A stretch of DNA of 63,267 bases, counting the filler, from Collodictyon triciliatum (taxonomy: Eukaryota), in assembly GCA_043381765.1 (NCBI GenBank). It is 4 parts of 4 records of this genome, joined end to end, with 100 filler letters (N's around TTAATTAATTAA, not from the genome) between each part and the next. Parts side by side here need not be neighbours in the genome. Positions count along the whole stretch, not along the records: positions 49,126 to 59,581 come from JBHJMP010001112.1; 3 more parts are not named here. One strand, 5' to 3'. The position numbers and the translations under genes are program-made. Under the pieces are notes generated by a model, which made no database searches, had not been told where the DNA came from, and saw nothing but the letters and a program-made list of their open reading frames with translations. Shown one piece after another: positions 6,001 to 59,681 of the stretch. The stretch's first letter is position 1, and each line of letters starts with the position of its first letter.

Positions 6001-9000
6001 CCACACTTGAGGAAGTGCTTTGATAGCATCCAATCGCTGGACTTTGGGCCAGACCCTAAAAGCGTAGACATTTTTGCCATGGTTTCGGCAGAAGGTGAAA
6101 GAGTACCCCTTGGACGGAACTTGAAGGCTCGAGGAAATGTAGAAGCCTGGCTTGGAATTGTAGAGGCTGAAATGGTCAAAAGTCTCAAAAAATGCATGAA
6201 AACATCATTCATCGATTATGAACGAACACCTTACAATCAATGGGTTTTAGCCCACCCTGCACAAGTCATCCTGGCCATCGCCCAGGTATATTGGGGACGT
6301 GATGTCGAAATCTCTCTTCAAAATGACTCACCTTTAATATCACTTCGTGACTTCAAACTCAAGTGCATCGACCAGCTCTCTCAATTGGCTGCGCTTGTTC
6401 GAACAGACCTATCCAGTTTACAAAGGAGCTCTATTGTAGCCTTGATAACCATATCTGTGCATGCGCGTGATATCATTGATAAGCTTATCAACGAAGAATG
6501 CAAGGATGTGAATGACTTTTCTTGGCTGCAGCAACTACGATACATATGGGATGTGGAGCAGGATGACCTTTTTGTGAAACAGTCGAATGCCACATTGCTA
6601 TACTGTTATGAATATCTTGGAGCTACACCTCGCTTGGTCATCACACCACTTACTGACCGCTGCTACATGACGCTTACTGGTGCAATTCATCTGAATCTCG
6701 GCGGGGCACCTGCTGGACCCGCAGGAACAGGAAAGACAGAAACTGTGAAAGACCTTGCAAAGGCGCTGGCTCGGCAATGCGTTGTCTTCAATTGTGGTGA
6801 AGGCCTTGATTACAAGTTTATGGGCAAGTTCTTTTCTGGTCTGGCACAATCGGGTGCATGGGCTTGCTTCGACGAATTCAACCGCATAGATATTGAAGTG
6901 CTCTCTGTAATTGCCCAACAACTGATGACTATTCAGACGGCACTGAAGAGCAAGGTATCCAAATTTGTATTTGAAGAGCGTGAAATGAAAATCACTCGCA
7001 CGTGCGGCGTGTTCATTACTATGAATCCAGGATACGCTGGTCGCACAGAACTCCCTGACAATCTCAAAGCTCTCTTCCGACCTGTCTCCATGATGATTCC
7101 TGATTATGCTCTGATTGCAGAAATCATGCTATTCTCTGAAGGCTTTGAAAACTCAAGGTCATTATCACAGAAGATGGTGAAGTTATACATGCTGTGCAGC
7201 CAACAACTGTCGCAGCAAGACCACTATGATTTCGGCATGCGAGCAGTCAAGGCTGTGCTTGTGATGGCGGGAGGTCTGAAGAGATCAAACCCAGAGTTGC
7301 ATGAAGATATCGTCCTTATTCGAGCCATGCGAGACAGTAACATTCCAAAGTTTCTGGCTGACGATATTAACTTGTTCCAGGCTATTGTTTCAGATCTATT
7401 CCCCGGAGTTCATCTGCCTGATCATGATTATGGAGAACTTCATGTCGCTATCCACGATAATATTACTGACCAAGGACTCCAACCCGTAGAAGGCTACATC
7501 ACAAAAGTCATCCAACTGCATGAAACTATGAATGTACGATTTGGGGTCATGCTTGTAGGTCCCACTGGTGGAGGAAAGACCACCTGCTATCGTGTCTTGA
7601 AAAACGCATACACGAACCTCCGAACAAACGGCTCATCCAACCCGAAATACCAACCAGTAAAGACACATATAATGAATCCAAAATGTATTAATATGGGAGA
7701 ACTCTACGGAGAATACAACCTCAATACTCATGAATGGACGGATGGGCTTGCAGCCACCATTGTCAGACAGTGTGTCAGCGATACAAGCATGAACTATAAA
7801 TGGGTTGTCTTTGACGGTCCTGTGGATGCTTTATGGATAGAGAACATGAATACGGTCCTCGATGACAACAAGACTCTATGTTTGGCAAATGGAGAACGAA
7901 TTAAGCTCAATGACACAATGAGGATGGTTTTTGAAGTTGAAGACTTGGCTGCTGCATCCCCTGCTACTGTATCCCGGTGCGGTATGGTGTATATGCCCCC
8001 AGAAGTTCTGGGATGGAGGCCGTATGTAATCACATGGATAAATCGTGTTTTGCCACAGAATCTCTCCAAAGGATTGAAGAATAGATTAGTTGATATGTTT
8101 GACAACTACGTTCCCGCTGGATTGCAGTTTATTCGCCGAGAATGCAAAGAGGAAGTTCCGTCAAATGACCTAAATTTGGTTGTCAGTCTATGCTCTTTGT
8201 TTCAGTCATTGTTCATGCATGACCCTGGTGTTGACCTCACTGCAACGGATGAAGTTATTGGGGATATTATGGATAGCCTCTTTTTTTTCTCATTTGTTTG
8301 GTCGATTGGAGGAAATATTGTTGCAGACTCTAGATCCGTTTTTGATACATTCATCAGAGAGAAAATCAATATCGGGGTAGTTCCAGTACAAGGGACAGTC
8401 TATGATTATTATGTTGATCCAAAGACTGGGTCATTTTATCCATGGAAAGACATAATCCCAACATTTGTTTACAACCCAGAAACACCCTTCTTTAACATGA
8501 TTGTGCCCACGTCAGATTCTGTTTGCTTTTCGTTCCTTCTGGAAAAACTTATCCGTGTAGAAAAATCCGTCTTATTTGTCGGAACAACTGGGGTTGGTAA
8601 GTCTGCTATTGTCTCTGATTGTTTGAGAAGACTGGGTGAGAAAGACGTTATTACAATCGATTTACAGTTTTCTGCCCAGACAACCAGCTCGAATACTCAG
8701 TACTTGATCGAAAATAAACTAGAGAAGAAGAGAAAGAACACATTTGGAGCTCCTGTTGGAAAGAAGATTGTCGTATTTGTGGACGATGTTAATATGCCAG
8801 CAAGAGAAATATATGGTGCACAGCCACCTATCGAACTATTGAGACAGTTTCAAGACTTTCGAGGTTTCTATGACCGAAAGAAGCTACACTGGAAGGATAT
8901 TAAGGATCTAACTATTGTATCGGCATGTGCCCCTCCGGGAGGTGGTCGTAATGTCGTCACGGCAAGATTTTTCAGACACTTCAATATGTTGAATGTACCA

Positions 9001-12000: not shown

Positions 12001-15000
12001 AGCTTTTTTGTATAAAAAAAAAAACTAAAATCAGCTTTATTCGATAGCTTCTCGTCGATGTAGTTGGGATAGAGAGACCTGAGTTGGAAGAAAAGAGAGA
12101 AAAACTTGTAGTTAGTCTTGCTAACGACAAGAAGCAGCTTTCGGATTTAGAAGCCCGCATTCTGCAATTACTTTGGGAATCAAAGGGAAACATACTTGAT
12201 GATGAAGTTTTGATTAACACTTTGAATGAATCCAAATCAACATCGACTGTCATTCATGAACGTGTGACTGAGGCAGAAGAAACACAAAAGAATATTACTC
12301 TTGCACGCGCTGCTTATATTCCTGTGGCAGTGCGTGGGAGTCTATTGTATTCTGTCATAGCAGACATCGGTCTGATTGACCCTATGTACCAATTTTCCTT
12401 GGAATATTTCAAGAGATTATTCAACAACTGCATTCGGAATACACCCCAGTCACCGAATATAGACAACCATATTCAAGACCTGATGACAAATGCAACCGAG
12501 CAAATCTTCTTGAATGTTTCACGCGGTTTATTTGTAGAGCACAAGATGATATTCTCTTTCCTACTCTCTATTTCATTTTTGAGAAATTCGAAGCAAATAT
12601 CTGATGCAGAATGGTCGATGTTTCTCCGTGACCCAAGTGACTTGCCTTCGACAAATATAACAAACCCGGCTCCCAATTGGATAACGCCGCTGATGTGGAA
12701 CCGCTGTTTGTGGTTGGATTCAAAAATACCAGCATTTAGTGGTTTGTGTCAGAGTGTCACATCTGGTGCGAAGGATTGGCAAGGATTCTACAATGCCCCT
12801 GAAACACACACAGCTCAATTGCCCGGAAAGTGGGAATCATCTCTGACAGAGTTCCAACGGATGCTGGTTATTAAAGCATTCAGAGAAGAGAAACTAGTGT
12901 TTGCTGTTGCTCAATACATTCTCAAAACACTTGGAAAGCAATTCACAGAGGCTCGTCCATACAGCTTGGACTCTGTGTTTTCGTCCTCAGCAAAGGACAC
13001 CCCGATAATCTTTATTCTGTCTACTGGTGCAGACCCGACGTCATCCATATTTCGATTTGCAGAGGAACGTGGCTATTCTTCCAGGACACAATCCATCTCA
13101 TTGGGGCAAGGGCAAGGCCCCATCGCCGCTCGCATGATTCAAGATGCCTGTGCAAATGGAAATTGGGTTGTGTTGCAAAACTGTCATCTCGCTGCATCCT
13201 GGATGCCGTCCATGGAAAGAATCGTCGAGGAATTTTCAGGCTCTAGGGCAAACCAAATCAATGAGTCATTCAGGCTATGGCTCACTTCAATGCCGACAAA
13301 GGCTTTTCCGGTCTCGGTGCTTCAAAATGGAATCAAACTCACGAATGAGCCCCCAAAAGGATTGAAGGCCAACTTGCTGCGCTCATACGCATCCATGACC
13401 GACACAGAATTCGAAGGATGCCAAAAGCCTGTTCCTTGGAAGAAACTTTTGTATGGCCTGACCTTCTTCCATGCAGTTATTCAAGAACGACGCCGATTCG
13501 GGCCCTTGGGTTGGAATATTCGGGTAATTATCTATACACATATATTGAAATGGTGTATTAAGTGTGGTTTTGGTAGTGTTTCAAACATATGATGCAGCCA
13601 ATTGTTCTAACAAAACGCTCTATCCACCAAGTACGAGTTCAACGACAGTGATTTGGAGGTCTCGAGGGCTGTACTAAAAATGTTTCTGGAAGAGCAAGTT
13701 GATGTACCATGGAAGGCTTTGCGATATGTTACAGGAGAAATTAACTATGGTGGGCGAGTAACAGATGATTGGGACCGTCGCTGCCTGATGTCTATTCTGA
13801 ATCATTATTATATCGATGATATTTTGAGGGAGCGTTACAACATATCAGCCTCTGGGACTTACCATACTCCTCCCATTGGTAAAATTGAGGTATTAAAGAA
13901 AAACACATGAAAATATGAAAATTTGCTATTGCAAAACAATTCAAGTTATCTGTAGACTTTTTTTTTTGTAAAATCATCCTCAATTTATATAATGGGGACT
14001 CGTTGTGTAGGATTATAAAACATTTATCGATCGCCTGCCATTCACCGAAGACCCTGAAGTCTTTGGGTTGCATGAAAATGCAAACATCGCTTATCAACTT
14101 CAAGAAACCCGCAAGATTACTGGTATTGTAAATGAGCTACAGCCGAGGTCGATGGCCTCTTCAGATGGAATGACAAGCGAACAATATGTGGATAAATTGG
14201 TATGGGTGATTTATATATCATTGACGCTCAAATAAACAACACATCTATCTTGATTTTATATTTGCACTCAGATTGATGTTAAAAAAATTCATTGCCTTAA
14301 ATCACATCCTTTTTCTTTTTCTTTTAATTTAAAAAAGGCGAATGATATCCTTGAGAGTCTGCCGATGCCACTTTCACTGTCAGATGTCTCTGTGGATTTG
14401 ATCAGAAAGAACGCTGAGGGTCAATACAATTCGCTCACAACAGTTGTCCTTCAAGAATCGGCTCGATTCAACAAACTTTTGAATGTGATGAGGCGTAGTT
14501 TGATTGATATTCAAAAAGCAATCAAGGGGCTTGTTGTCATGAGTTCAGAGCTGGAGGCGATGTTTAACAGCCTCTTTGGAAACAAAGTGCCAGAAATATG
14601 GGGAAAGGTTCGTTTTTCGTTTTTCGTGTTTCTCTTTCTTTTTCTTTTTCTTTTTCTTTTTCTTTTTCTTTTTCTTTTCTCTTTTTTCTTCTTCTCATTT
14701 TCTCTTTCTTTTGTTCTCTCGCAATTAAGCTACAAATTGTTGAGCTGGTATGAATTATTTAATTTCATCTTAATTACATCATTATCGTTCACAAACCAGG
14801 CTGCGTATTTATCGCTAAAACCGCTTGCCTCGTGGATGACTGACTTGAAGGCTCGTGTGGAATTTGTTCGTCGGTGGTTAAGTGAAGGCCACCCAAAGTG
14901 CTTCTGGCCGTCTGGACTATTCTTCCCTCAAGGTTTTCAACCTGACCCTGCTTTACCTCAAAATTGTAATATAAATGCATTAAAAGGAATCCAGCAATAT

Positions 15001-17922: not shown

Positions 17923-19473
17923 ATGGGTTTGCTTACAATACTGAAGAAGGTCAAGGCCAAAGAAAAGGAAATGCGCCTGCTCGTCCTGTAAGCTCCTTGG
18001 CAAGCTTTGCTCTTCCATCCTTTATTCTTCTTTTTTTTCTTTTTTTTCTTTTTTTTCTTTTTTTTTCTTTTTTTTTTTTTTTTTTTTTATTCTACAAGTG
18101 TCGTCTCTTACCTGTTAAAAAGAGTCTTGCTGGGTCGCGTCGACGCCTCCAAAATAATGCTGTTTTGTGAACTTTTCCCAGTGGCCTGGATAACGCAGGG
18201 AAAACAACCATCGTCAAGCGGATCAACGGGGAAGACATCCATACGATCAGCCCGACTCTGGGCTTCAACATCAAGACGTTCACTTTCCCAACCGACGGAA
18301 CTGAGTTAGAATTATTTTTTTCCTTTATTCGATTCAAAGAGTTTGTTTGAATCATGATGATTAAAGAGAGAGAAAGAGAGAAAACAAAAGAGTAAAAACA
18401 ACAGAAATATTACTAAGAACAAACAAAACAAAAACATGCGAAGAACATATAGAAATGCTCCATACATGAATAAATATTGGGACTAGGGAGGCTTCTGTAC
18501 AATTATGCTTTGTGCCTAACGACACCCGCATACCCCAAAGATACAAACTCAACGTGTGGGACGTCGGAGGCCAGACAACCATCCGCTCGTATTGGCGTAA
18601 CTACTTTGAACTGACGGAGGGGCTTATCTGGGTGGTCGACAGTGCGGACCGGCGACGCCTTGCAGACTGTAGGGAGGAACTTCGGAAGCTTCTACTCCAG
18701 GAGGTAATTTTCTTTCTTTCTCATGGTCTTGGTACTTTCCCTTGTGTTGAACTATCGATTCTTTCGAGAGAAAAAAAAAACACAACTCATAAATCAGAAA
18801 CTGGCTGGTGCCACACTTCTCGTCTTTGCAAATAAACAAGACCTAAGTGGGGCCCTTTCTTCCGAGGAAATTGCTAAGGTCAACACTGGCCCTTATCTAT
18901 TCTTTTTCTTTTCTTCTTTTCTTTGTTCTTTTTTAACTGTTCCTTTTAACTGTTCTTTTTTCTTTTCTTTTTTCTTTTCTTTTTTCTTTTCTTTTTTCTT
19001 TTCTTTTTTCTTTTCTTTTTTCTTTTCTTTTTTCTTTTCTTTTTTCTTTTCTTTTTTCTTTGTTCTTTGTTTCTTTTCCTTTTTCTTCTCTCATTACGGC
19101 CATTTTTATTTATCAGTCAAAGTTCACTCTTTCTAAGGATATATTGAAAATTATATGTTACTTTAAAAATGAATCTGTTGCTGATGGAATCATATGTTAT
19201 CTCATTTAATTGTTAAATTCACCCATATGTGAATGCACTATAGCTTTCAGCTTAATTTTTGCTCTCTCGATGACTATAATTTTTTTTTTTTAAAAAAAAA
19301 AAAAAGACCCACACATATATCCTTGCTTAATTCTCTAGTTTTTGGAGCTGGACCAGATAGACGCGCGACACTGGCACATTCAAAGTTGCAGCGCAGTCAC
19401 AGGAGAAGGGCTGGAACAGGGGTTTGGGTGGATCGTGAGGGATATTGCTGCTCGCATTTACATGCTTGAGTAG
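17923..19473 (+). CDS. ARL2: ADP-ribosylation factor-like protein 2 (5 exons)
   Basis: [85 protein letters not shown]...[10 protein letters not shown]-stop. Confidence 0.95.
18315..18339 (-). mobile_element. Micro-element copy C (CTTTGAATCGAATAAAGG-A7) in ARL2 intron 2
   Basis: Exact reverse complement of the 18-nt core at 56311 and 58332. It starts 10 nt after the first base of the donor. Flanks GTTAGAATTA / GTTTGAATCA may be a decayed TSD. Confidence 0.6.
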
Positions 19474-20111: not shown

Positions 20112-20143
20112 TTTTTTTTTTTTCACTTTATTCAATTCAAAGT
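20112..20143 (-). mobile_element. Variant micro-element copy D (ACTTTGAATTGAATAAAGTG-A12), possibly the 3' end of a longer retroelement remnant
   Basis: Matches the core with one CpG-type transition and one extra base, followed by a 12-nt A tract. No TSD found. Confidence 0.4.
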
Positions 20144-21684: not shown

Positions 21685-23197
21685 AGCCCTAGGTTGGTTC
21701 TTGGTCTTTTTATCATTATTATTTTTTATCTTTTTTTTCCTTCCTTTTTAGAGGGGAGGGAGGGAGGCACCGATGGTATTCACCTTTTTACAACCCCCCC
21801 CCCCCTTGAAACTAACGAACATGCTTGTCTTCACGCCCAAGAGGCACGAAAGAGAAAAAAACTTGACTTGAAGGAAATAGCGTTTTTTTTCTTCAATAAA
21901 CAGAGATTACAAAAGTACGGGTCAAGCAGACAGCCCAAGTCAGTATGTATGCTTCTTAAAGCCTTGCTCTTTGCAAACCCTTCAGGCAGCGGCGATCTTG
22001 TGAGCCAGCTAACTGTTTACTTTCTCGCCGCGGTGCCGCTCCGGTCGCCCTCTATGGCCACTTGCGGAAATTTGGCTGCACGGAAGACTCTGCGAAAGCG
22101 ATCAACTACGCGCCATCCGTTTGGCTTTGAAGGAATCTGCCGTGATGGCCAGCAAGAACTTTTTCTTTTTGTATGTCTTCGTCACTGAATTTTTAAATAA
22201 AATGCCAAATATAGCAAATGGAATTTTGTTGAAAAGCTTTCCTGCAAATGGGCGAATTCTTCGGAGTTCTTAATTTTGATATTTTTGGAGCTCATTTCGA
22301 TAACTGCGGATAGAGAATCCAGCCCGTCCCCGATGGTTGTGACTGTCGCGTGGGGAGGCATCCAACAAGTCTTTCTTCCTACAGAATGATGCCTTTGTTT
22401 GTCTGAAACAAGAAGACTCTTAATCGATAAAGGCCCGGTATATTTTTCCCATTCTATTTCTTATTTCTTTACTTTTCTTTTTCTCTCTTTTCTTTTTCTT
22501 TTTCTTTTCTTTTTTCTCTTTTCTTTTTTCTCTTTTCTTTTTTCTCTTTTCTTTTTTTCTCTTTTCTTTTTTTCTCTTTTCTTTTTTTCTCTTTTCTTTT
22601 TTCTCTTTTCTTTTTTCTCTTTTCTTTTTTCTCTTTTCTTTTTTCTTTTTCTTTTTCTTTTCTTTTTCTTTTTCTTTTTCTTTTTCTTTTTCTTTTTTCT
22701 TTTTTTCTCTTTTATCCTCGTTTGTAGTTAGGGAAGCAAAGGTCGAAGTTGTATTTCAGCACGCTGCCCAAGAGGCTGTATTGCACAAGGATTCCTTTAC
22801 TGGATAGATTTTATTCGTTCAGTCAAGTTGTCAGGGAAAGAGGAAGCACGAAAACTCCTCAATAACTACAGTATAGATTCCCTTGTGACTGCTAAGATTC
22901 TAGAGTCGTGGGGTGTATGGTATTGTTGGTCAACTAAGGTGTTGGATGCGCCAGTTCGGTTGTGAGCGCACTCTGGTTAATAAATCTGAGATACAAATTC
23001 CCCTACTTCGGCAACAGTGCCTTCCTTTTATCTGAAACAGCGCACTCTAAAATAGATAGCACTCTGCTTGTGTCCTAGCAAGTATGAGGTTATGCCATAC
23101 AAAGGATTGAGATATACTTTTGATTCTTTTGAAGATTTTGGAGTTTTTGTTTTTAGGGGAGCATCGATCAACAGTACAATAATTGGTTAATAAGACC

Positions 23198-24308
23198 TCA
23201 TAAGTCTGGTCCAGAGAGTGATTTAATCCCGGCGACGAGCGTCTGTGTGGAAGGACGAGTGGTTTTCTCTGTATCCCACGCTTTCCGAACCAAATCAGCG
23301 TAAGCTGCCGGCATGTCCGAAGGGATTTCAGGTCTCACCCCACGGCCAAGGTCATTCCCTACCTAATTGTGCCTCCTATTAGTATTATCATATTCTCACA
23401 AATACACGAGTAATATATAATATGGTGTACACTTGCGTGTATAGTAAGATGACAAAAATAGCAAGAGATAGATAATCGTGTGAAAAATAGGTGGATGACC
23501 AAAAGGAAAAATCGAAAATCGTGTGAAAAATATAAATCGAACGATACAAGAGTAAGATAAATTGATGAATGGAAAGCTTGTGCAAGTTCTTTTTCACCAA
23601 CCTTAACACTATTATATCCTTCAAAGGGAATTTTACAAGTCCATACTTCCCACATGATGACACCAATACTGTATATATCACTTTCGGCTGTTAGATGCCC
23701 ACCGGCAAACAAAATAGGATCTCTGTAGATTATGCTGTACGAATCGATAGATTGGGTGCGAAACTCTGCCTTGAACTTTTCGAAGCCAAACTCCCCCAAG
23801 CAAACATTCCATACAGCATCAATCTTAATTTACATAGTAAAAAATTCAAACAATGGATTTTCACTTAGTTTGGAGGAAATATAAAATTGGAAGAAAGAAA
23901 TGGGTCTAATAAGTGCGAGGTTAACCTGGCTAATATTCGTAATAATAATCATGATGATGATGATGATGATGATGATGGTAAGAATAACAATGCATATATT
24001 CATGATATCTCCTGACGAGCAAGAGTAGATGGCCAATTGTTTAACTTATACAATGAATTTAGATACCCATATTGAAGCTGGGCGGATGTTAAAATGAAAG
24101 ATGGCTGGCTGTCTCGAGTGGAGATATTGGACACCCTCTATAATTTGAATGAGTATGGAATATTTTATTCTGGGTGTCAGCCTACTTTTCGAATTCTTCA
24201 AGACTGCATCCAGTGTCCCCATAGAGAAATAATTCGAGACGAAGCAAAAGTTTGTGCTGTCAAAACTGGCCCCAATTACGGGCATAATGTTTGGGTGATG
24301 AATTTCGC
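23198..24308 (-). CDS. Paralogous TKL-like pseudokinase (5' exon lost at segment end)
   Basis: Same intron positions and motifs as its neighbour: HPNIMPVIGASFDS, FHFNIRPASIW, LGEFGFEKFKAEFRTQS, YRDP, SDIYSIGVIMWEVWT; TGA at 23198-23200. Confidence 0.82.
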
Positions 24309-24473: not shown

Positions 24474-24573
24474 NNNNNNNNNNNNNNNNNNNNNNNNNNN
24501 NNNNNNNNNNNNNNNNNTTAATTAATTAANNNNNNNNNNNNNNNNNNNNNNNNNNNNNNNNNNNNNNNNNNNN
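24474..24573. other. Artificial assembly spacer N44-TTAATTAATTAA-N44
   Basis: Exactly 100 nt with a six-frame stop linker at 24518-24529; identical spacers occur twice more. Confidence 0.97.
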
Positions 24574-24735: not shown

Positions 24736-25827
24736 TAAAAATTAAGAAATAATCAGAGTATGTTTCTTTGTTTCTTTGTTTCTTTATTTGAGAGAATGGC
24801 AATTTCATAGTTTGACCTTATCTATACCACGCGCTGTGAAAGACGTGGTGAGACCTTGGATACTAGCAGACCAGGCTTACCAATCGAAAAATTGGTACGC
24901 TCTTCCAAGTTGAGAAATAATCGGAAATGAAAAGCCAAGCAACAGAGTCAGCCATACCCATTTAAATTAATAAAAATGGAAATTAAAAATATATGATGTT
25001 TCCTTCACATATGGGCGACCATAAATTCGTCTATCTATATAATATAACTAATAATCAATTATCTTCATTCTAAACAATTTGTGACAACTATACATCAGCA
25101 AATTCCAAGGTGTTTGCAAAGAACCCACTATTTAAGCGCAACGGCCGTTACTTGTATTCCTACTTTGGCCAGCCCATTTCTTTCATAGAAATGATATTAA
25201 TTAAGAAATCCTCGAACGGAAAAAGAGCTGGGATGTCAACGCGTTAATTTCCAGAACAGCGTGTATGAATTGAATTATTCAAACCCGCCTGATTGATTGG
25301 CCGCTTCATTTCCGAGGCCCTGCTCTTGAGCACGCCAAGCAGCCAGCTACTTGCGCCCGAGTTAGATCTGTCTGTTGCGTAGTAGGCCATGAGGCCAATC
25401 ACTTGCAAGGCATCATCGACAAGGCAAAGCATTCAGCTGCAGCAAAAGCTGATCTTTCTAAGCATCGCACTGAGCGCCTCGCTAACCTTCAAAACCATTC
25501 TCAAGACATAAAACAGGATCCGCGGTGACTGGCAAGCGTGAAGCCGAACTCCTCTGACCTCGCAGCGCAATTGAGTATCCGGTATCTATTTTTTTTTTTT
25601 TGTTGGCCCTAATTAACAATGAAATATATAAATCTGTATAACAAGTAAGATAGGAACAATTAAAAAAAAGAAAAGAATAGAAAAAGAACGCAAAAAAAAA
25701 AACCCCCACTGTTATGATCTAGAAAAAGAATCCTTTGAAGCAAATAAAGGGAAAAAAAAGATCTAGAAAAAGACGAAGGAATAACAGAGACTCGCCCAAT
25801 TACACAGGACGCACATATCCGCAGCCC

Positions 25828-28800
25828 ATGTCCAGCGTCTATGCGGAGCAGCCTCCTTCCCAAACAACACAGGGCGGGCCTCTATTTCTGCGGCGATCAA
25901 CACCGCCTGCCGATCCATCTTCTGCTGATCCAAACACAACCGATCAAAAAGGCCTTCTGCGCAAATCATCCACGTCCTCCACAATATCCCTCCCCTTGTC
26001 GCTGTCCAAAGTCGCTCCGATGCCTGATCAGCAAAACTCCTCAAATCAAAGTCCCAACCCCGATGGCCTCTTGATTAATAGCGACCAAAACAATCCGAGT
26101 GGCAGCCGAAGTATCCACATGATCAATCCAGATGCTGAGCTGTCACCAAGGGTCGCATCCACACCTGCTTCCGCCCGAGCATATATTGTCCCAGAAACAG
26201 CCGAAGAGCAACCAACTAATGGGCGCAACCTTGGATCACACGGCCTCAGCGGTCGCCCCTTTGTGTTGCCAAAGCCTTCATTCTCAATGTTTGAGTGTCT
26301 GCCATCCATGGAAAACTTTTCGGCACTACGCCAACGGATTCGTGGATGGATGCGGCTATTGAAGGATTTTAGAGTGCGGCCTGACTCGTCGTGGCATGAC
26401 AATTTCGCACAGATATTGAACATATGCATTCTTTACAACACAATCATGCTTCCGTTGCGCCTTGCATTCTCTCCGGACACAATCGTCTATTACTTTTTGG
26501 ATTATCTTTGGGCAGACCCTATGTATCTTTTGGATATATTCTTTAATGCAAGGACAGCCTTTTCTCATGAAGGTTCACTGCAGACAAATGGGAAAAAGCT
26601 TTTTGACCGGTACAAATCATCCGGTGGGTTTTATCTCCACGCCTTTTGCACTATTCCCTGGGAAGTCCTTGCCCTTGCATGTGGTGGTGCAACTTGGATT
26701 CCTTACTTCCGTCTCAACAGAGTCTTCCGTCTGCTTTCTATGCCAAATGCTTTTGCAAGTGTAGAGAAACGTATCAGTCAGAATGTTAATGTCATTCGCC
26801 TTGTAAAGCTGTTTTTTGCTGTGTTGTTGTACGTCCACTGGGCTGGTTCCCTATGGTTTCTTATCGCTCAGTTCGAAACAGACAAGTATGATTCCTGGGG
26901 ACACCGATATCATGTTGATGAAGCTGAAAGCATAGACCAGTATATCACATCTATATACTGGGCACTAATTACTTTTGCAACTGTGGGATATGGTGACATC
27001 ACAGCATCAACGCGCCTTGAAAAGGTGTTTATTAATAACAAAAAAAATGTATCGGCCCTCGTCCACTATTTCAATAATGTCATGAAATTCTACATTTCTG
27101 AATGGATCCATGAGAAACATCTAATATACCTTCACTATTTTATTTTAATAGGTATACACCATTGTTGTTGTGTTCATCGGTGCTGCTGTATATGCGACTA
27201 TCTTCGGTAATATGACTAATTTAATTGCTTCCTTGGATGCTGACGGTCTTCGATATCGCGAAAAAATAGGAATGTTGAACGAATATATGAGGTTGATATG
27301 AGAATTTTCTTCATCTTACTGTCACATGCACATCATATTGTTAGTCATTATGATAATCAGTTGTTTGATACAAATCACCCTTTTTATCATAGTAAGTTCA
27401 TTATCTTTGACGTTTCTAATCTATTCATCAACAGATACCGTGGATTGCCTAACTCATTGAAAACCAGGATTAGAGACTATTACGACGTGATATGGAATCG
27501 ACATAAAGGTCTTGATGAAGCTGCAATACTAGATGATTTGCCACCTTCTCTCCGTTCTGATGTTGCTCTTTACCTTCACCACCACCTCGTGCAAAAAGTA
27601 CCTCTTTTCCAGGTTCGTTTAATTAATTATGGAGCCACATCTAAATAAATTTCTCTCTCTTTTTTTTCCCAAAAAAAGTAGCCTGTTCATACCACTACAG
27701 TTTCTCATTTATATTGTCAATTTTTTTAAACAGGATTGTGATATTCCCGGATTTATTAACTCTCTGGTAGTTAAGCTTCAGCCTCAGGTTAGCTGTGCTT
27801 TGCCTATAATATCTTTTGATAATACATGTATACGAAAAAAATATGCTTGACCGTATGTTTATGAAGCCAATTAATTGCTCTAACTTCCTTGATACGATTA
27901 CATTTCCGCACATACAAAAAATTAAGGTGGCATTACCTGGAGATTACATCATCAGACACGGGGAAATAGGCAGAGAAATGTATTTTCTTTCCAGAGGCCA
28001 AGTAGAGGTTATTTCTGGTGATGGCAACGTTGTTTATGCCACTCTGAATGAAGGAAGCTATTTTGGGGAGATTGCACTACTGTAATACTTCCTTTTGCTT
28101 TTAAAAAAAATGGTTATTTCATTTTGAACTTTTTTTTATGAACAATAAAAACAAACCCTCCCTCTTTTTTTTAAAAAAAAACTAGATTCGAAGCAAGGCG
28201 CATCGCGCATATCCGAACCACGACCTATTGTGACCTCCTGATGCTTACAAAAGATGACTTTGACTCTGTGCTGTGCTACTTTCCAACTCTTGTGGATGAA
28301 ATGCGAAGGAAAGCAAAGGAAAAAATCGGAGAACAAAGGATGCAAACTGCTGACAAGCCACCACCCAAGCCAACAGGGAAAGTTGGACTAATCCCACTCA
28401 CTGATGCAGAACAGAAAGAGTTTGACAAACGCGGAAATGGGCGACGCAGCTCAAATGCAGATGAGTCCGATAACGACAGTGGTGATGGCTCCGACGACGA
28501 CGAACCAAAGCGAAAAAACAGGCTCAGCAGTGTAGCAGTAGCAACCAATATAATGAAGGAAGCAGGGGGTTCTCTTCTGGCCGGACTCGCGGGCATTAAA
28601 GCCGCCATGAACTCAAGAGGCAGTTCTGAAACCCTAGATCCAGCGAGCTCCCACAAGGACTCCCCTGATGCGGTGGTCGGTGAAGCATCAGGGTCAGGGT
28701 TGGCTGCACAAAAGTCGTTATCCCTGCTGGAGCGCTTTGCAGAAGATGAGCGAGCTGCAGACCACCAACACATGAGTGTCACCGACATTACCTCCCAAGA

Positions 28801-32309: not shown

Positions 32310-48889
<16,580 letters not shown>

Positions 48890-49025: not shown

Positions 49026-49125
49026 NNNNNNNNNNNNNNNNNNNNNNNNNNNNNNNNNNNNNNNNNNNNTTAATTAATTAANNNNNNNNNNNNNNNNNNN
49101 NNNNNNNNNNNNNNNNNNNNNNNNN
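49026..49125. other. Artificial assembly spacer N44-TTAATTAATTAA-N44
   Basis: Linker at 49070-49081; truncates the TOR 3' end and the HAS1 5' end. Confidence 0.97.
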
Positions 49126-49371: not shown

Positions 49372-50746
49372 GAGTCCATCCTGCTCAAGAGCATGATGAC
49401 CGACCAGCCCTTCGAAGGCTTACCGATCAGCGAGAACACAAAGAAAGGACTCAAAGACCATAATTTTGTCAATATGACTCAGGTACAGGCACAGTGCATT
49501 CCACCACTACTTTCTGGCAAAGATGTTCTCGGCCAGGCTCGCACTGGTACGGGAAAGACCCTTGCTTTTCTCATTCCTGCACTCGAGCTTCTTGCGTCAG
49601 CAAAGTTTATGCCTCGCAATGGTGAGATGATCATAACAGCTTTATCACTCGCAATGTCATGAAGTTTTGAAGGATTTTGTGTGCAACTTCAAAACTGCTA
49701 GGTCTTTTCTTTTGTATGTACATTTTTATTGGCTCTTTTACATAATCCATTTATACTATCCTATAGGAACTGGTGTCCTTATCATCTCCCCAACGCGAGA
49801 ACTTTGTTTGCAGATTTACGGCATCGCTAGGGATTTAATGAAGTACCATGTGAGTCTGCTATTAAACATGACCTAAATAATTTAGTTTTTATTAATCATT
49901 CGCATTTGACTCAACTGAAGGAGGCGCTGTTAATATTGAATTTAATAAATCATAATATCATCCATTTTTTACAGAATCAAACGCACGGCATTGTCATTGG
50001 AGGAGCTAATCGTCGCGTCGAAGCAGAGAAACTTGCCAAGGGAATCAATCTGCTAGTTGCTACCCCTGGCCGTCTCCTAGACCATCTTAGTGTAAGCTTT
50101 GTCAGTCATTCTACATTTGTATTCAATCATACATTTTAATTTAAATCACCCCTAATATTTTGTATTGCGTCGATTTATCACAGAGCACCCCTGGTTTCAT
50201 CTATAAGAACCTACAAATGCTCATCATTGATGAAGCTGATCGTATTCTCGAGATTGGTTTTGAGGAGGATATGAAACAGATTATCAAGTTGCTACCAAAA
50301 GGTAAACTTGCTGAAATTATTAACTTGAGGTTTCTTTGCTTTGATATGCTTCCGTTTACCACCAACCCCCTATTTATCCTCACTTTGACCATCATTATGT
50401 ATTTTGCAATCATTAGACCGAAAAACCGCCCTCTTCTCCGCTACACAAACAAGAAATGTGAAAGATTTAGCTCGGTTGGCAATTAAGGTAAATGAAGCCA
50501 GGTCTCGGGTTTGTCGTAACCCAAGTGCAAAGTAAAAATAATAATAATAAACCTGATGAAATGATTCAGCATATATTCTAATTAAACTATCCTCTTCGAT
50601 CTTTAAAGGACACTCCGATCTATATTGGTATCGATGATGAAAAAGATGTCAGTACTGCGCTTGGACTAGAGCAGGTATTCTTTTTCATTCCAAAATAAGG
50701 GAAGTTGCATGGCAATATATTCAAATCAATTAATGGCCCTTTTTTT

Positions 50747-50826
<80 letters not shown>

Positions 50827-52513
50827 GTCGACCGCAACCTTACCAGAATTCCTCTTTTATGATTCCAAATAACAATAAAACGTATATTGAAATCAGGGCT
50901 ATGTCATTTGCCCAAGCCAAGGCCGGTTCCTGCTATTATTTACATTCCTCAAGAAGAACCTCAAAAAGAAAGTGATTGTCTTCTTTTCTACCTGTAAATC
51001 CGTAAATTTCCATGCCGAGCTTCTCAACTACATCGACATTCCTGTGCTTGAATTACACGGCAAGCAAAGCCAGAATAAGCGAACCACTACATTCTTTGAA
51101 TTTGTCAATGCACAGAGGTTTGTCACCTCATACAAATCCAATCCAACGATGAACTAGTGTCACTCTTGTTATGATTTAATTGGACGGTGTGTCTCAAATA
51201 TCTTTATCATTGTATGTAGTGGCATTCTGCTTTGTACAGATGTCGCTGCTCGTGGTTTGGATATCCCTGCTGTCGACTGGATTATCCAATACGACCCTCC
51301 AGATGACCCTCGTGTAATTTCTACATAATTGTTTAGCAGCGTAGAGATAAAAGAAAAAGAAAAAACCTGTTCTTTTACTCAACAGCGTGGGTATACTAGG
51401 AATATATTCATCGAGTCGGTCGTACGGCTCGTGCTGGGGGGCGGGGTCGAGCTTTGCTCTTTTTGTTACCTCAAGAAGTTGGATTCTTAAAGTACCCACA
51501 ATATTTTTTTTTAAAACTTATATTTAAAAAAAAATGGACCATCAATGTTTGGATATATAAGGTGTTGTATGAATCCGTTGAGTGCTTCTCTCTTCACCGT
51601 TCAATTATATATACAATAATGAAAAAGGTATCTCAAGCAAGCAAAGGTGCCACTCAACGAATACGACTTTCCCCAGAATAAAATCGCTAATGTGCAAGAC
51701 CAGGTGTGTATCTATCCCATTCACCTAATCTCCTCAATGCTGCAATTATTCAATTAAACGTGTGTAATGAAAACGCAATAGCTGGAAAAGCTCTTGGAGA
51801 CAAACTACTATCTCAACAAGTCTTCACGCGAAGCATACCGGTACAATGCGCGTCTTAAATGAAGTTTGATAAACCATATTTGCGGTGCACTAAAGCCCCA
51901 TCCACTTATCGTCATAGCGCGTATATCCTCGCCTACCATTCGCACTCCCTGAAAAGCATATTTGATGTTGGAAGACTCGATTTACTCGCAGTGGCAAAGT
52001 CCTTCGGCTTTACAAACCCACCAAAGATTGAACTCGGTGCGTGTTTATAATATAGTATGGTATGCAAAAAAAAAAAAAAGAAACTCATTCACCTCACCTC
52101 CTTTATTTTGATAGTTGCTCCAAAAGCCCGTCGGAGGGAGTATGTCGGCACAGACGGGGCCAAGAAAGGAATCAAAAAGATCCGAACCTAGTATGCTCTC
52201 AATAACTTCATTCAGATACACATACACACCCTAGCATGCAAATAAGACTCCTTCCCTTCATGGATGAACACCTTTGTCACTCTAATCCTTTCTTTTTTCT
52301 TTTTTCTTTTTTCTTTTTTTCTTTTTTCTTTTTTTCTTTTTTCTTTTTTCTTTTTTCTTTTTTCTTTTTTCTTTTTTCTTTTTTCTTTTTTCTTTTTTCT
52401 TTTTTCTTTTTTCTTTTTTCTTTTTTCTTTTCTCACAAAGTGGGCCTCACGGCTTCAGCGAGGACGATCCGTACGGAAAAACCAAAGCCTCTGCCCCGCA
52501 GATAACTCGCTGA
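49372..52513 (+). CDS. DDX18: DEAD-box RNA helicase HAS1/DDX18 (5'-partial)
   Basis: Q motif [108 protein letters not shown] 52511-52513. Confidence 0.95.
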
Positions 52514-53135
52514 GTAAACTCTCCCTCTTTCCCCACAACCTGCTTTCGTATCCCAATCCTATATTTCTTATTTTATCCCCTCTTTTGTTTCCCTCACCAC
52601 AGCCAAAGCAGCCGCCCGACTGGATAAAACTTCGCATCAAGAAAGTGCTTATCATCGACTTTGTATATTTATTTTGGCTAGTATCAGGAGAGTGGAAGGG
52701 AAGTGCTCGGACCGGGCTTTGGGGGCTGTTGTCCAGGAGTCTTTTCAGAAAAGGAGTGCGATGGCTTGGGGAGTGGTTTCTCCGCCCGTCGAAAATGAAT
52801 GGCTCGTGGAGGTGGAAGAGGCAAGAGAAGAATGGGAGCGAGTGGGGAGAGAGCAACAGACACGTATCATGGGCGGTGTTTTCCACTAATCATACATTCA
52901 TAATGTGTGTTCTGTTCTGGGTGATTGAGAGAGAAGGAGCGAAGGGAAAGGGGGTGTCTGACTCTGTTTACGTCCACTCGTCGAAGTGGCCAGAGTGTGT
53001 TCTGCGGGCCTCCACCCAACAGTTGCGGACAATATTGACGACGTTGTTGTTCTTGGTGTCTCTCTTGTTGATGGTGATGCCATCAAACTTCAATCATCTG
53101 TTAAGACAGACGCGCATATACCCGGCTATTGACCT

Positions 53136-56100
53136 TTACCAGTCCCCAGACGGTGCGATAGTTGCGTTGGGCGCCGTGTTTGTGACTGGCGCGGGTGTCC
53201 TCTTTCTTGCATAAAACATATCGTATGTCCGGCCTCCGTACGTGTATGACTTTTGGCGGTCTTCGAACTCGATGTCTGCATCGTCTCCAATCAGGCCGCG
53301 CGTGACATGAGACACATTGATGCATCCAGGCGTCCCGTTTGATTCCATCTTGGATGCAACGTTGACATTCTCTCCCCAGATGTCAAAGACCTGAGTGAAG
53401 GAAGCGATGTGAATTGTTAGTGCCTGCGGTATGCTTGGGCACTTGCGGCGACTCAAGTAGCCAATCATTTTTCAAAAGATAAAAAAAAAATCAATATGTT
53501 AAACAGATAAGCATACGAATAATGTCTGTCTTTTTAAAGTTTAATGGAAGCTTTTGCGCGCGGTTGTTGATATAAAAAAAATACATAGAAATATACGTCA
53601 TTTATTGCTTGTAATATATAAACGCGCATAGGAAAATGAATTGCTCCTTTTTTTTCTCTTTTTCATTTTTCGTACCATCTTGCTCAATCCAACGATGCCA
53701 CCTACAACCGGGCCACTGTGAACTCCGATGCGCACATTCACACGAAGTCCTTCAATCTCAGGGTACGCTGCAACAATCGAAGCCATCGCAAGCCCCATTT
53801 CTACTGTTACCTGGTAAACGAATGCCCCAACAAGAAAACACCTTTAATTCAATCTCCAAGACTTATTTATACATACATAAATCCCTCGTTATGAACCCAC
53901 GAAACTCCTCTCCATGGATTGATTCAGTCTTTCGCAGGCTTGTTCAACCGGAAAAAAAATGATTATAGAAACAATAGGAACCTTGGCATGGTCTGGACGA
54001 GGATATGGGAGCCCGCAGACTACCATATATGCGTCGCCTGTCAACCATTATTTATTTATCGTTAGTTGTTTTCGTAATTATAATATGTTTTTAAAAAATA
54101 TGGATGAAACATTTAAAACACTGTTTCACATAGTCTTAAATGCTACTACTCTAAAATCCTTACCAATCGTCTTGATTTTTTCCAATCCTTTTTCTTCGGC
54201 GAATGAATCGAACTGTTACGATAGGTAAGATGGTACATAAATAAGGTATTGACATCCCCTTGATTGGGCCCAATGTTTGGAAGAATACAAAATGAGGAGG
54301 TATATTGAATGAGGGGGAAAAATCCAAAATGAAATGAAAAATACCTGGCAAAAGAGGTTATTGAGCATGGTAACGATGCTGCGCGCGTCCAACTTAGATG
54401 ACAAGACAGTGAAACTGTTGGGTTATTTATTGGTTATGATTCAGTTCCTTAAAAGAAAAAACAAAAACAAAAACAAAAAAGGGGGTAATGCTTGGGTTTT
54501 AAAACGGTGGAATTGGTGAAAATCCATACCCGACAATGTCAGCGAACAAAACAGAGGCATTATCGTAGGAATCAATTAACCGCCCGTCTCCACCTCTCAT
54601 CTTGTCAATTACAGCTTCAGGAAGGATATTGTCTAAATTTCAAGAAAATTGGGAAACAATCAGCTTGCTCCTTTAAACATTAATAAAATAAAATAAAACC
54701 GAAAAATAGACATAAGAGATGGACATGGCTTATTTTGCTAGGTATTGCTTACGCAAAAGTCTCTCCGATTCCTCTCGCTGTTTGATGACTTTAGCTCTTT
54801 CTTCATCGGCCATGTGGGACATAAGGAATTCACACCTAGTCATTAAAAAAAATGTGTAAATATGAGTCTGTCACCCCAGAACAGTCATAGTACAGTCAGT
54901 TACCGATTGTGCTTCTCGACCATTCCAGCAGTCACTTGGCCAAACAAGGTGATGGTCGCATAGAATAGAATGGCGTGGACATCAAACTCTTTCATGTTAA
55001 AGAAGATGCAGAACAGCTAGATGGATTCGAGGTGTCGATTAGAATCTATGAGCACGGAATTATGGTTGTCTTTGAAGTAACATCCGTGGGTGTAGTTAAC
55101 TATTCGCCAGAGATAAAGGTTTTAAACATAGAATTACAGCGAATATCCCTAGTGTGAGCATGACGATGGCATTGGAGACAACGTATGGGATTCGCGAGCT
55201 CATGAAAGTCAAAATTGAAAAGATCTGCGTGATTTGGAAATAGAAGCGGACCACGGTTGACGTGTCCATCCTGTATTGAAAGACATAAAATATTATGAGT
55301 TGCTTTTCATATCCAGTTCTATGCTTCCATTTTTCTTTAAATGTGTCAAATATGTCAGGAAAACTGAAAAAAAATCATGCCCGTTGCATTGGCAAACCTG
55401 TAATAAATAAGCAGGCATAAAAGAACCATGTGCACACTAATCACACTGTAGACATTCATCAGATATCCCATATCAGGCTTCAGCTTGGTAACACCGATTA
55501 ATGCCATCTAGAAAGTTTTATTAAATGTAAATAAATAAATAAAAAATACCACAAAATTGCAGATTGGTAGAGTAATAGTTTAACAAAATTCCCAGTGGCA
55601 CATAGCGTGCTTTAACGATGGTGAACAATGTGTAGTCTTGATATTAACAGAGTATGAATAACCTGGAATAACGCACAAACACCCATGGAGAGGTAATAGA
55701 GGGAAATATCGTGCGAAGCTGTGGAGAAACGGAGAATTCCAGGGCCAACCGCCATCATTATACCGATGTAAAGGAGAGTGACATTTATCATCACTTCGTT
55801 TCCTTTCCGCATTTGGGATTCACGAAACTCCTTTTCAACATGAGGCTCTGTAAAGGTCAGGATAGTTCCATGTACCAGTTTGATTTTGGATGACAGGACA
55901 GCATCAAGCTCGTCATTCCTCTTCTTCATAGCTTCACGAGCCTTACGCTTCTTTCTCTCTGCAGCAGAAAGTTTCTTATCTCCGTTGTTTTCGTCTAGAT
56001 ATGGTTTGATATTACTCTAATGGTACTTTATGGCGAATCATATGGATTTAACCTCATACTCTTCTTATTTTCCTGTTGTAAAATAGAATTCTGTTGTTGT

Positions 56101-59100
56101 TGTTGTTGTTTTGTTTGAAAGAGAAAAAAAGGAACTCACCTTCAGTCTCTTGATTCCCAACTCCATTTCCAGCCCCACCATTAGTTCCGTCTTGATTTGC
56201 TTGTTTGCTGAGGTCCTCGGCCGATGAGACTGATTGCGGAAGTGACTTCCTATGGGGTTAAGTGAAAAAAAATTGAATGATGGTTAAAATATATATTGAA
56301 CGTGATTATACTTTGAATCGAATAAAGGAAAAAATATTGAACGTGATTATTTTACGCATATCAAGTGATAAAGATTTATTATATAAATTAATTATAAAAT
56401 CTTGCGAATGTATAGATCATACAACAATCCACCAGAACTTACTTTCCCACTAAGTAGTACGTCTGCATCAAGCCTTTTCCCTTCACTTCTATTTTGGGTC
56501 TCTGCTCAAACTCAAAGTGAGACTTGAGGAGCTCTTGGAATTCAGATGTCACATGAATCCTCCCTGTCTCTCCATGTGATTGCATGCGACTTGCTTTATG
56601 TTGATTCAAAAGGAATCCATGTTAGTCTGGTAGCCAAATTCCGTGTGAAAAATAAAGTATGTATCTTGTCTTGCCTAGCTTTTTCCATGTAGCAATTTCA
56701 TATTTTTTTCGTGGCGATTAAATCTAAGTGAAATGACCGTGGATTTCATGATTCATTATGATTAAAATGTCTTGCCTGTGTTTACAGAGTCTCCCCAAAG
56801 GTCGTAAAGAAACTTAGTTTTACCTGGGTTATAATGTGCTTAATGAAAGTCCATTCAAGTGCATAGTTCCATACTTGAAAAAGATATACAATTCAGCTCT
56901 TCATTAATATGTATATTCGCATCTTTCATTGATATGTAAGATCTGTTCATATGATAACAAAAATGATGGTATTTCGGCCCTCATACCTATGACTCCAGCC
57001 ACTACAGGGCCTGTATGTATTCCAATTGTTATTTGGATGGTTCTTCGCTTCATCACTGATAACCCTTCCACCTGAAAAAATTGCAGTTATTCTTCCATGA
57101 ATAATAATTAATGGCTATTTCATCATTGAGAGCCCCTCTATTCTATTGTTGATTGCTGGAGGGGAAAAATACTTACAGCTCGGAGCATATCGAGTGCAAA
57201 TGATGCCATCTTGCGCGCGCTGTGAATCGCTGGTATTGGTTCCGGTAACCCACATCCTACAAGGTAACCTGAACGACGATATGATAAAATATTCATAATT
57301 ATTCTCTTTTAATTTCTTCTTTCATAATATTAAAGAGATCCGATGAATGGAACATATGCGGTATGACAATATGTTTATGAATCATACCGTCTCCAATTGT
57401 CTTGATTTTCTCGATCTTGTAGGCCTGTGTAAGCCTATCAAAATTTCCCACAATTTCACCAAGCAGCGTAACAGCCTCTGTAGGAGGCAAAGAACGTGCG
57501 ATTTCGGTCCACCCGACAAGGTCGGCGAAAAGAACAGTGACATGACTGTATCCATCAGATATAACCTGGGGTGAGCAAAACCATCAGTGCATATTTTCTT
57601 TTTTTTTTTTTTTCCCCTCATCATTTCCGAGAGCCTTGAAATGTTTTGCATCACTTTATTGGTATGGTTATCAATTATTTCCTCACTTCCTCTCCGTCCA
57701 TCAATCTGCGTGCAATTTTATTAGGAAGAATGTTAAGCAGTAGCTTTTCCTACATTTCCAAGTAACCGTAAGGAAACAGGGCTGCGCTACAACTTTATCC
57801 TATTTATGAGATTGTCAGCACGAATGAATCGTGTATTACCGTAACCATCTTTTCTTTGACGACTTCTTCAGTGTGTTTCAGAATACCAGCACGACGAATC
57901 TGAATCATGTTGTGTTGTATTAAGTATCTCTTCTATATTATATATATATCTACTCGAATGAACGCATAATGACTACCATAATTAAAAAAATCGTTATATC
58001 TAAACAATTCAATCGTTTAATCAGGCACATACATCTTGTCTACGGTTAGCCAGTTCGCTCTTGTAGCAAGTGACCAGCATGGGTCCAGTGGTCATGATAA
58101 TGTAGATGAGATTCTCGAGATAGTCCAAGGGCTCCGTGGTGGGGAAGAGCGAGATGAAGATGAAGTAGATAATGTCAATTATCACAGACAATAGGAGTGC
58201 TTCCTGTGGGTAGGGGGAAAAAAAAGTTGCTCAGATTTTTTTGGGTATTTCGGCTATTAAATCCTCTTTCATGTGTGTGTGAAAGTTCTTTAAGAGGGTG
58301 GATATGAGACTTATTATCCTACGCGAAACGGCTTTGAATCGAATAAAGGGGAAAAAAATCCTACGCGAAACGGGAATCGCAGAGCCATGACAATGGCATA
58401 TTGAGCAATCGTGTACACCACTGAAAGGTAACGAGCATCGGAGATTGTAATCATGTACGGCTCGTCCAAATCAAAGTCGGTAAAGAAGCGGGCCACTCCT
58501 AGTCCCGTTACTTCAAAGATGCCGAGGGCTGCCACCAGAGACATGTGGTAATGATGAATCCATCTACAGCAGGTTTATTTATGAATTATTAGATAAAGAG
58601 GATCTCTAACTTCGACTGCTGTAAAAAATAACAGAGTTGTTCTATATTTGCTGAAAAGAGACACACACAAATACAAAAAAAATGTAACAACGAGGTCATG
58701 GAATAGTCTGGTACTTTTGTCCTAGCATATAGAGGACGATGGCAGTGATGAAGACCATCACGGCGTATGTGAGCATGAGTCCGACTTTCTGGTGAGTGAG
58801 AACATAGAGTCCGACGAAGGAGCTGAGTGCAAAGGCAATAAAGCCGCAAAAGATTTTGTGCATGAGCGTTGAGGAATAGAAGGTCTTTTGGAAATACTCG
58901 TCTTCGAGCGTCTCATCCTAAATGCGGAAAATATCTCATTATTGTTGCTCTTGTCCCCGTGGTTACTGTTTTCTTAATAATTTTGGCTAAAACCATAATG
59001 TATGAACCGTCTGTTTGAATTAACTTACGATAAACTTCATGAAGCGCCCCATCGCGTACTTTGCCTCGACTTCCTTTGCAATATTGGCATCCATTTCTTC

Positions 59101-59283
59101 GACGTTGTCTTTGCGATTCCACACGTTGGACAGATCTCCGATGTCCATCAGCCCGCCGGTGGCTGTGGATGACAGCGACATACGAAGCAGCTTCGCTTCG
59201 TCAACCGGCCCATTTGCCACGCTGCCGCCTGCGTTGCCTTTGGACAGCCCGTAGGGTGATGAGTCATCTTTGAGGTGCGACAT
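53136..59283 (-). CDS. Membrane class III adenylyl cyclase, M1-C-M2-C architecture
   Basis: Two hydrophobic blocks, each followed by NILP and a cyclase domain. Domain 1: FADLVG, EKIKTIGDGY, YDLWGDSVNTASRM, VKGKG. Domain 2: FADIVG, EKIKTIGDAY, FDIWGENVNVASKM. The Lys/Asp pairs indicate ATP specificity. Confidence 0.9.
56310..56333 (+). mobile_element. Micro-element copy A with 17-bp TSD
   Basis: ATATTGAACGTGATTAT (56293-56309) - ACTTTGAATCGAATAAAGGAAAAA - ATATTGAACGTGATTAT (56334-56350). Confidence 0.8.
58332..58357 (+). mobile_element. Micro-element copy B with 16-bp TSD spanning a splice donor
   Basis: ATCCTACGCGAAACGG (58316-58331) - CTTTGAATCGAATAAAGGGGAAAAAA - ATCCTACGCGAAACGG (58358-58373). 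Confidence 0.8.
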
Positions 59284-59476
59284 TTGTAGCTAATCAGCTT
59301 TGATCCTTTTCTGGTCCCAGTTGGTACTTTATCTGCTAGTGACTGGGGGGATTTGATGTGTTCTGCGGTTGGAAAGAGAAAAGAAAAAAATGGTGAGCTC
59401 TTTGGTGAAGTACTGGTCATGATATTGACCGAAAGACAAGTGTATTTTCTATCCTTCTGATAATTGACCGTCTTCT

Positions 59477-59510
<34 letters not shown>

Positions 59511-59581: not shown

Positions 59582-59681
59582 NNNNNNNNNNNNNNNNNNN
59601 NNNNNNNNNNNNNNNNNNNNNNNNNTTAATTAATTAANNNNNNNNNNNNNNNNNNNNNNNNNNNNNNNNNNNNNNNNNNNN
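59582..59681. other. Artificial assembly spacer N44-TTAATTAATTAA-N44
   Basis: Linker at 59626-59637. Confidence 0.97.

Follow-up and report, generated by a model that had tools for sequence, protein, structure and literature searches.

Here we report that a recurrent unit of about 25 bp in DNA of Collodictyon triciliatum (NCBI GenBank assembly GCA_043381765.1) is very probably the extreme 3′ end, 18 nucleotides (nt) followed by an A tail, of an L1-like long interspersed nuclear element (LINE), inserted by target-primed reverse transcription (TPRT). The whole stretch of DNA analysed, called the window throughout, is 63,267 nt long (filler included) and holds five such units, all of which start at nearly the same base of the LINE. 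We consider the chances about even that this fixed 5′ end reflects an early stop favoured by the reverse transcriptase (RT) on the LINE RNA (a “strong stop”) and not a separate RNA, and for the explanation as a whole, LINE-tail TPRT with an early stop, we estimate a probability of roughly 0.55.

Copies of the core and their flanking duplications

The 18-nt core (CTTTGAATCGAATAAAGG) followed by an A run was found five times in the window, where 0.06 copies were expected (both strands, at most 2 mismatches), and none of 100 shuffles matched this count; a chance origin of the copies is excluded. All five come from this one window, and their parts are as follows.

56311-56328, + strand: copy A, exact core, 1 extra A before it and A5 after it; 17-nt repeat at 56293 and 56334
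56310-56333, + strand: copy A unit, extra A + core + A5 (24 nt)
56293-56309 and 56334-56350, + strand: copy A target-site duplication, identical 17 nt
58332-58349, + strand: copy B, exact core, no extra 5′ base, GG + A6 after it; 16-nt repeat at 58316 and 58358
58332-58357, + strand: copy B unit, core + GG + A6 (26 nt)
58316-58331 and 58358-58373, + strand: copy B target-site duplication, identical 16 nt
25733-25750, + strand: copy C, core with 2 mismatches, ATC before it and G + A8 after it; 14-nt repeat at 25716 and 25760
25716-25773, + strand: copy C as a whole, with its perfect 14-nt duplication at 25716-25729 and 25760-25773
18322-18339, - strand: copy D, exact core (unit 18315-18339), nothing before it, A7 after it
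20126-20142, - strand: copy E, core with 1 mismatch (CpG to TpG; unit 20112-20142), nothing before it, TG + A12 after it

Three of these copies had been noted in an earlier reading made without database searches (the sequence-only reading), which described the core plus an A tract between perfect repeats of 17 bp (56293/56334) and 16 bp (58316/58358), a further exact core at 18322-18339, and a start at the same base (±1) in all three. The two repeat pairs were read directly and are exact, the third core was confirmed on the minus strand with its A7, and the common start holds, with one extra A in copy A and no extra base in copies B and D. Copies C and E are additions to that set. An A run of A5 to A12 trails the core in all five copies and starts 2-4 nt past the AATAAA motif. 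The extra A ahead of the copy A core is the same base that precedes the core in the LINE contig described below. Right after copy C begins an ion-channel open reading frame (ORF; 25735-27210).

Target-site duplications that are perfect and abut the unit flank three of the five copies, and their length is variable (17 nt in A, 16 nt in B, and 14 nt in C). When exact direct repeats of at least 14 nt, not of low complexity and with a spacing of 14-60, were counted, the window contained five and 200 block shuffles contained none. Three of the five surround the core, one surrounds another insert of 27 nt, and the last is a tandem repeat of 15 nt. A chance origin of the flanking repeats is likewise excluded; the sequence-only reading had held that the lack of an excess of 14-18-bp flanking repeats would refute it, and those around the core measure 14, 16, and 17 nt, with none in the 200 shuffles. 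The primed strand was cut at AT/ATAT, AT/AATA, and TC/ATAA (slash, cut site) in copies A, B, and C, respectively, and the adjoining sequence is AT-rich. Four further repeats associated with A tails (11-13 nt, 2.9-6.3 kb apart) were dismissed as chance on their length alone.

The other insert lies at 23490-23516, enclosed by a perfect 16-nt repeat (23474-23489 and 23517-23532), and is unrelated to the core. It ends in an impure A run, and its repeats have a spacing of 43, compared to 41-44 in the three LINE-tail units. It is a singleton, as the one further match to it within the window carries 3 mismatches and is at chance level, and a template other than the LINE may have given rise to it as a micro-insertion. 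A 15-nt unit is present about three times in perfect array at 44695-44742, beside an (AAAAAC)n run.

The parent LINE and its copies

When metagenome contigs were scanned for the core with an A run behind it, a single contig of 1157 nt (L001) matched, and the same scan of a genome contig collection returned none. The single match in a scan of viral contigs, to the bare 18-mer in contig L002, lay in a coding region without an A tail and was judged to be chance. On its minus strand, L001 carries an ORF, open at the contig end, that matches the Pfam family zf-RVT (E 1.5e-7, 32.4 bits, cut-off 27.5), a zinc domain that is C-terminal in LINE reverse transcriptases. After a one-base shift the frame goes on to a stop at L001 position 205, and a database protein of 98% identity, P0121, spans both frames without a break. 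Most contigs from the sequencing runs described below have one extra G after L001 position 593, which fuses the zf-RVT and downstream frames as in P0121 and suggests that in many copies of the LINE this part of ORF2 is preserved as one reading frame. The 3′ untranslated region (UTR) is 93 nt long and closes with the core as its final 18 nt (L001 129 to 112); A10 comes next, and beyond it lies unrelated AT-rich DNA. The core is thus the 3′ terminus of a LINE carrying a zf-RVT ORF.

Since L001 is cut at its 5′ end, ahead of the RT, the remaining enzymology was read from relatives. In a full HMMER scan covering 1.84 billion representatives, 14 proteins reached E ≤0.001, and 6 of them were covered by the Pfam scan. 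Four long relatives (P0129-P0132; 1226-1275 aa, 29-38% identity) all contain Exo_endo_phos and RVT_1, and three of them contain zf-RVT. The best solved-structure match of P0129 was human LINE-1 ORF2p (E 3.4e-57), with R2 proteins at 9.2e-24. Judged from these relatives, the parent is probably an L1-like, poly(A) LINE with an apurinic endonuclease (APE)-type nuclease. A word-based search for longer close relatives of the L001 ORF found none, and no related loci for another LINE protein, P0122, were found in the viral or genome contig collections.

The A tail, the perfect duplications of variable length (14-17 nt), the AT-rich nicks, and a parent ending in the same 18 nt together argue for L1-type TPRT, and in this respect the sequence-only reading, which had named TPRT by a non-LTR (long terminal repeat) retrotransposon, is supported. 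Variable duplications and AT-rich nick sites also fit an APE-type endonuclease, the Exo_endo_phos domain having been seen in 4/4 of the distant relatives. Mechanistically, the LINE endonuclease would nick an AT-rich site, the nicked strand would prime on the A tail of the LINE RNA, and the second strand would be cut 14-17 bp off, giving rise to the duplication. Synthesis of complementary DNA (cDNA) would then halt after only 18 nt, 0-3 untemplated bases would be added, and the product would be joined to the upstream end.

Origins other than retroposition of a LINE fare poorly against the same evidence. An excision footprint of a DNA transposon or filler from templated repair might be entertained because the core is loosely palindromic; we give such origins next to no credence, as the duplications are 14, 16, and 17 nt long, the A tail is on one side only, terminal inverted repeats are lacking, the core is the 3′ end of a zf-RVT element, and the same insert sits at unrelated loci. 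A DNA-transposon footprint or miniature inverted-repeat transposable element fails on the same grounds, namely no inverted termini, no fixed duplication length, and an A tail on one side only. A short interspersed nuclear element (SINE) fails as well, because there is no small-RNA head and the 18 nt are LINE UTR; a unit of 18 nt is too short to hold the A and B boxes of RNA polymerase III, and ARAGORN and Rfam returned 0 transfer RNA (tRNA) genes and 0 families, respectively, in the window. The units do have two SINE-like traits, in that a partner LINE has the same 3′ end and that their 5′ end is defined.

Traces of this or a related LINE beyond the five units were found in the window as follows.

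22740-22991, - strand: decayed relic of a related LINE, end of ORF2, all frames interrupted by stops; a (GAAAAA)n run follows, down to about 22560
23086-23105, - strand: 20-nt exact match to the LINE 3′ UTR (1 match vs 0 expected)

The relic is 68% identical to L001 over 206 nt by blastn (E 1.6e-15), aligns locally to the reverse complement of L001 540-812, and was hit by P0121 in tblastn (E 2e-5). A tblastn search of the window with 12 LINE proteins (P0121-P0125, P0127-P0132, and P0134) detected this relic only, at 22815-22967, and no RT-coding copy. The sequence-only reading had proposed to look for a master element encoding an RT, and the parent that came to light is the zf-RVT LINE of L001, cut before its predicted RT. 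The UTR stretch matched at 23086-23105 ends 6 nt before the core in L001, and the 5′ edge of the match (CCTTTGTAT) is similar to the 5′ edge of the core (CTTTGAAT). It sits about 95 nt upstream of the relic, in the 3′ flank of a kinase-like gene (putative, from translation). Long microsatellites of the (GAAAAA)n type (CTTTTT on the + strand) occur at 22560-22720, 52300-52430, 18950-19070, 14600-14700, and 1100-1270, and T runs, 75 to roughly 115 nt in length, at 41023-41137 and 50746-50820. As one of these microsatellites directly trails the LINE relic, some of the microsatellites and T runs may be expanded retroposon tails.

Sequencing runs that share the window provided a wider view of the LINE. 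Runs X1 and X2 contain 0.36 and 0.29, respectively, of the words sampled from window positions 52000-59500; X3-X8 are lake, freshwater, and subsurface metagenomes with small shares of the window stretch.

Run X1: 306 contigs aligned to L001, 129 of them at least 99% alike
Run X2: 344 contigs aligned to L001, 128 of them at least 99% alike
Run X3: 28 contigs aligned to L001, 0 of them at least 99% alike
Run X4: 83 contigs aligned to L001, 15 of them at least 99% alike

Contigs that depart from L001 where the A run ends (102-104) and go on into discordant flanks (agreement 0.55-0.7) numbered 5 in X1, 4 in X2, and 2+3 in X3, which shows that the LINE sits at many insertion sites and that the core is its terminus. 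In X1, the summed word depth, which is not copy number, fell from 4915 at L001 118-156 to ~3300 at 235-312, ~1250 at 313-468, and ~70-120 from 625 onward; whether X1 and X2 are RNA or DNA is a guess. Loose ends on the 5′ side were at L001 149, 249, 269, 509, and 590 among those listed, with 170 more, so that the runs hold LINE copies with scattered 5′ ends that are longer than the units in the window. In one X2 contig, the base with which the core begins (L001 129) is fused to L001 230, and three extra letters lie at the junction. This joint, which reaches about 100 nt up the UTR, represents either a deletion variant or a switch of template precisely at the core boundary.

What sets the shared 5′ end

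The bases ahead of the core are A, none, ATC, none, and none in copies A-E, so that every copy begins at the first base of the core ±3, and core plus 5′ extras amount to 18-21 nt in all five. No similarity to the LINE UTR was detected in the 300 nt upstream of any of the five copies (local scores 16-18, compared to 95th percentiles of 20-23 in shuffles). The core search was blind to copy length, as every LINE copy with an intact 3′ end would include the core. Moreover, the tail varies between 5 and 12 without compensation on the 5′ side, which indicates that the 5′ end is fixed on the body of the RNA and not by the length of the cDNA. The fixed end is a real regularity, one that an early strong stop, a template RNA ending there, or terminal redundancy would yield.

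Random 5′ truncation does not give five matching 5′ ends. Were the units ordinary truncated copies, their shared end would be a coincidence enhanced by ascertainment, and two observations lean that way: copies with many different 5′ ends are present in the runs, and LINE fragments down to 30 bp are reported for Ylli of Yarrowia (PMC5014426). Against this, a search blind to length returned five of five units of 18-21 nt without LINE UTR upstream, and we estimate that five ends within a 4-nt span are vanishingly unlikely if ends are spread over the last 300 nt; we regard ordinary truncation as very improbable. The sequence-only reading had argued likewise that random truncation does not match the shared ends, and the five copies within 3 nt uphold it. 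It had also held that 5′ ends scattered along a LINE would speak for ordinary truncation, and here the outcome is divided, with scattered ends among the longer copies of the runs and a single end in 5/5 copies of the window.

A preferred early stop fits these data best, in agreement with one of the two origins that the sequence-only reading had offered, a LINE whose reverse transcription halts at a fixed position, given that the core is the 3′ terminus of an L1-like LINE abundant in the runs that share part of the window. The unit is thus not a free-standing element. The other origin, an RNA of about 20 nt mobilised in trans as a “minimal retroposon”, we carry as a rival. Here a discrete short template, the 18-nt core plus poly(A), would be copied by the LINE enzyme until the cDNA runs off its 5′ end; such a template might come from cleavage of the LINE RNA or from 5′-to-3′ trimming up to a tail-bound protein, and would amount to a minimal non-autonomous retroposon. 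The 5′ end common to 5/5 copies in spite of tails of 5-12 would suit it, as would the X2 joint exactly at the first core base with its 3 extra letters. The 27-nt insert at 23490-23516, with its 16-nt duplication and like geometry, is a hint that distance from the tail, and not sequence, governs the stop; this insert is, however, a singleton with an impure tail. The 0-3 junction bases resemble those added by a polymerase running off a template end, as described in PMC2718515, and bases in this number do not discriminate between a strong stop and a template end. Furthermore, 18 nt leave no room for a promoter, so that a new copy could not itself act as a source, and Rfam detected neither a ribozyme nor a known RNA family at the boundary or close to it. 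Overall, we judge a short template rather unlikely.

Terminal redundancy would place the same 18 nt at the start of the LINE RNA as at its end, likened to the R region of retroviruses, and a jump of nascent cDNA from the 3′ copy to the 5′ copy, or recombination between DNA copies, would leave behind a “solo” core with its tail. The 5′ end would then be exact and defined by sequence, being the true 5′ end of the element, and the likeness of CCTTTGTAT at the edge of 23086-23105 to CTTTGAAT at the core edge shows that related motifs recur in the element. The LINE 5′ end was, however, not among the sequences recovered, L001 being cut and the search for long close relatives having found none, and an AATAAA at the 5′ end of the RNA would have to be ignored. 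We know of no terminal redundancy of this kind in LINEs, and we consider it improbable here.

Several results weigh against LINE-tail TPRT with an early stop. A flanking duplication was looked for around copies D (18322) and E (20126), and none was recognisable. The core RNA (23 nt) has a minimum free energy (MFE) of 0 kcal/mol, with all 200 shuffles folding at least as well; the LINE 3′ UTR folds no better than its shuffles (z -0.04 and 0.87); and Rfam on L001 at E ≤1 listed only 2 chance-level long non-coding RNA hits. A strong stop on full-length RNA and a template ending at that base predict the same DNA product, and five copies from one window are too few to separate them. The 3′ excess is only about 2-6 fold in X3, a run labelled “DNA?”, and because the kind of run was guessed and summed depth is not copy number, the 3′ bias of X1 and X2 could partly be a library effect. 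Finally, the RT and endonuclease ascribed to the parent are predicted from relatives of ~30% identity, as L001 ends before them.

We rejected an RNA structure that would serve as a roadblock or as a hairpin for recognition, since no fold went beyond the shuffles, and the near-palindrome (CTTT...AAAG) stressed in the sequence-only reading carries no structural weight. A ribozyme or known RNA at the boundary was likewise rejected, Rfam having no relevant match on L001 or the window.

Among known systems, retroviral minus-strand strong-stop DNA is a short, discrete first cDNA whose end is set by the template end; the analogy is limited, in that a tRNA primes this DNA close to the 5′ end of the RNA and that it serves as an obligatory intermediate instead of being inserted as a final product. 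In L1 elements, truncation points are broadly spread. Truncated insertions of human L1 and the L1 clade (ORF2p structures 8uw3 and 8sxt) are like the window units in their A tail and variable duplications of 14-17 nt, and human L1 is like the parent LINE in its AT-rich nick and 3′-biased copies, distant full-length relatives of the parent having the same layout of endonuclease, RT, and C-terminal zinc domain. The window units differ from human L1 in that all 5 end at one base 18 nt from the tail, that the tails are short (5-12 A), and that only 2-4 nt separate the AATAAA from the A run. For Ylli, an L1-family LINE of Yarrowia lipolytica CLIB89, the consulted part of PMC5014426 reports 104 fragments of 30 bp-1 kb with downstream poly(A) and no target-site duplications identified; unlike for the window units, it describes no discrete length class, and the host is fungal. 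LINE tails of the RTE type (Lepidoptera and others), 3′ ends with duplications, were mistaken for SINEs until the parent was found, as related in PMC2887409; these tails are simple repeats, unlike the poly(A) of the window units. In Drosophila R1 and R2, the 5′ junctions are precise or have few non-templated bases, truncated copies included, and the R2 polymerase adds bases when running off a template (PMC2718515, in part). R1 and R2 are site-specific, unlike the window LINE, with a restriction-like nuclease in R2 and an APE nuclease in R1, and the same part of PMC2718515 does not describe a fixed ultra-short product. No description of a discrete ultra-short LINE product was found in the literature searched, a search too limited to show that none exists. 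Truncated LINE tails are ordinary, and the discrete 18-nt end is what sets the window units apart.

Window setting and significance of the units

A further coding feature of the window was noted.

5839-13592, + strand: axonemal dynein heavy chain, two very long open frames of 2031 and 502 aa, ~150 nt apart

Its best named relatives are ~50% identical and one transcriptome protein is 75% identical; a dynein heavy chain in very long exons marks the host as a eukaryote that bears flagella and is poor in introns. Blocks of N lie at 24474-24573, 49026-49125, and 59582-59681 (44 N, 12 bases, and 44 N each), and 36907-37646 is 740 N. The window is scaffolded or masked in places, which fits the “segments” of which the sequence-only reading spoke.

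With truncated LINE tails, a common genomic litter, as the origin of the units, the reading of them as a “minimal retroposon” mostly loses force. The step just after TPRT initiation is hard to observe in vivo, and if the fixed 18-nt cDNA is dominant, the units would offer a natural read-out of RT pausing or template trimming at that step. We put forward, tentatively and as something we doubt more than we believe, that the dominant product of this LINE is a tag of 18 nt from its 3′ end with a short A tail, generated by a strong stop or from a tail-protected RNA fragment. If so, the 24-30-bp unit would be the shortest recurrent retroposed element described and would mark the minimal RNA needed in cis by this reverse transcriptase, and the 27-nt insert of like geometry would imply that length is set by distance from the tail, i.e., by the enzyme footprint. 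For the organism itself, the units carry AATAAA and adjoin genes, and because their small size would let them escape every repeat masker, they could inflate apparent “indel” variation.

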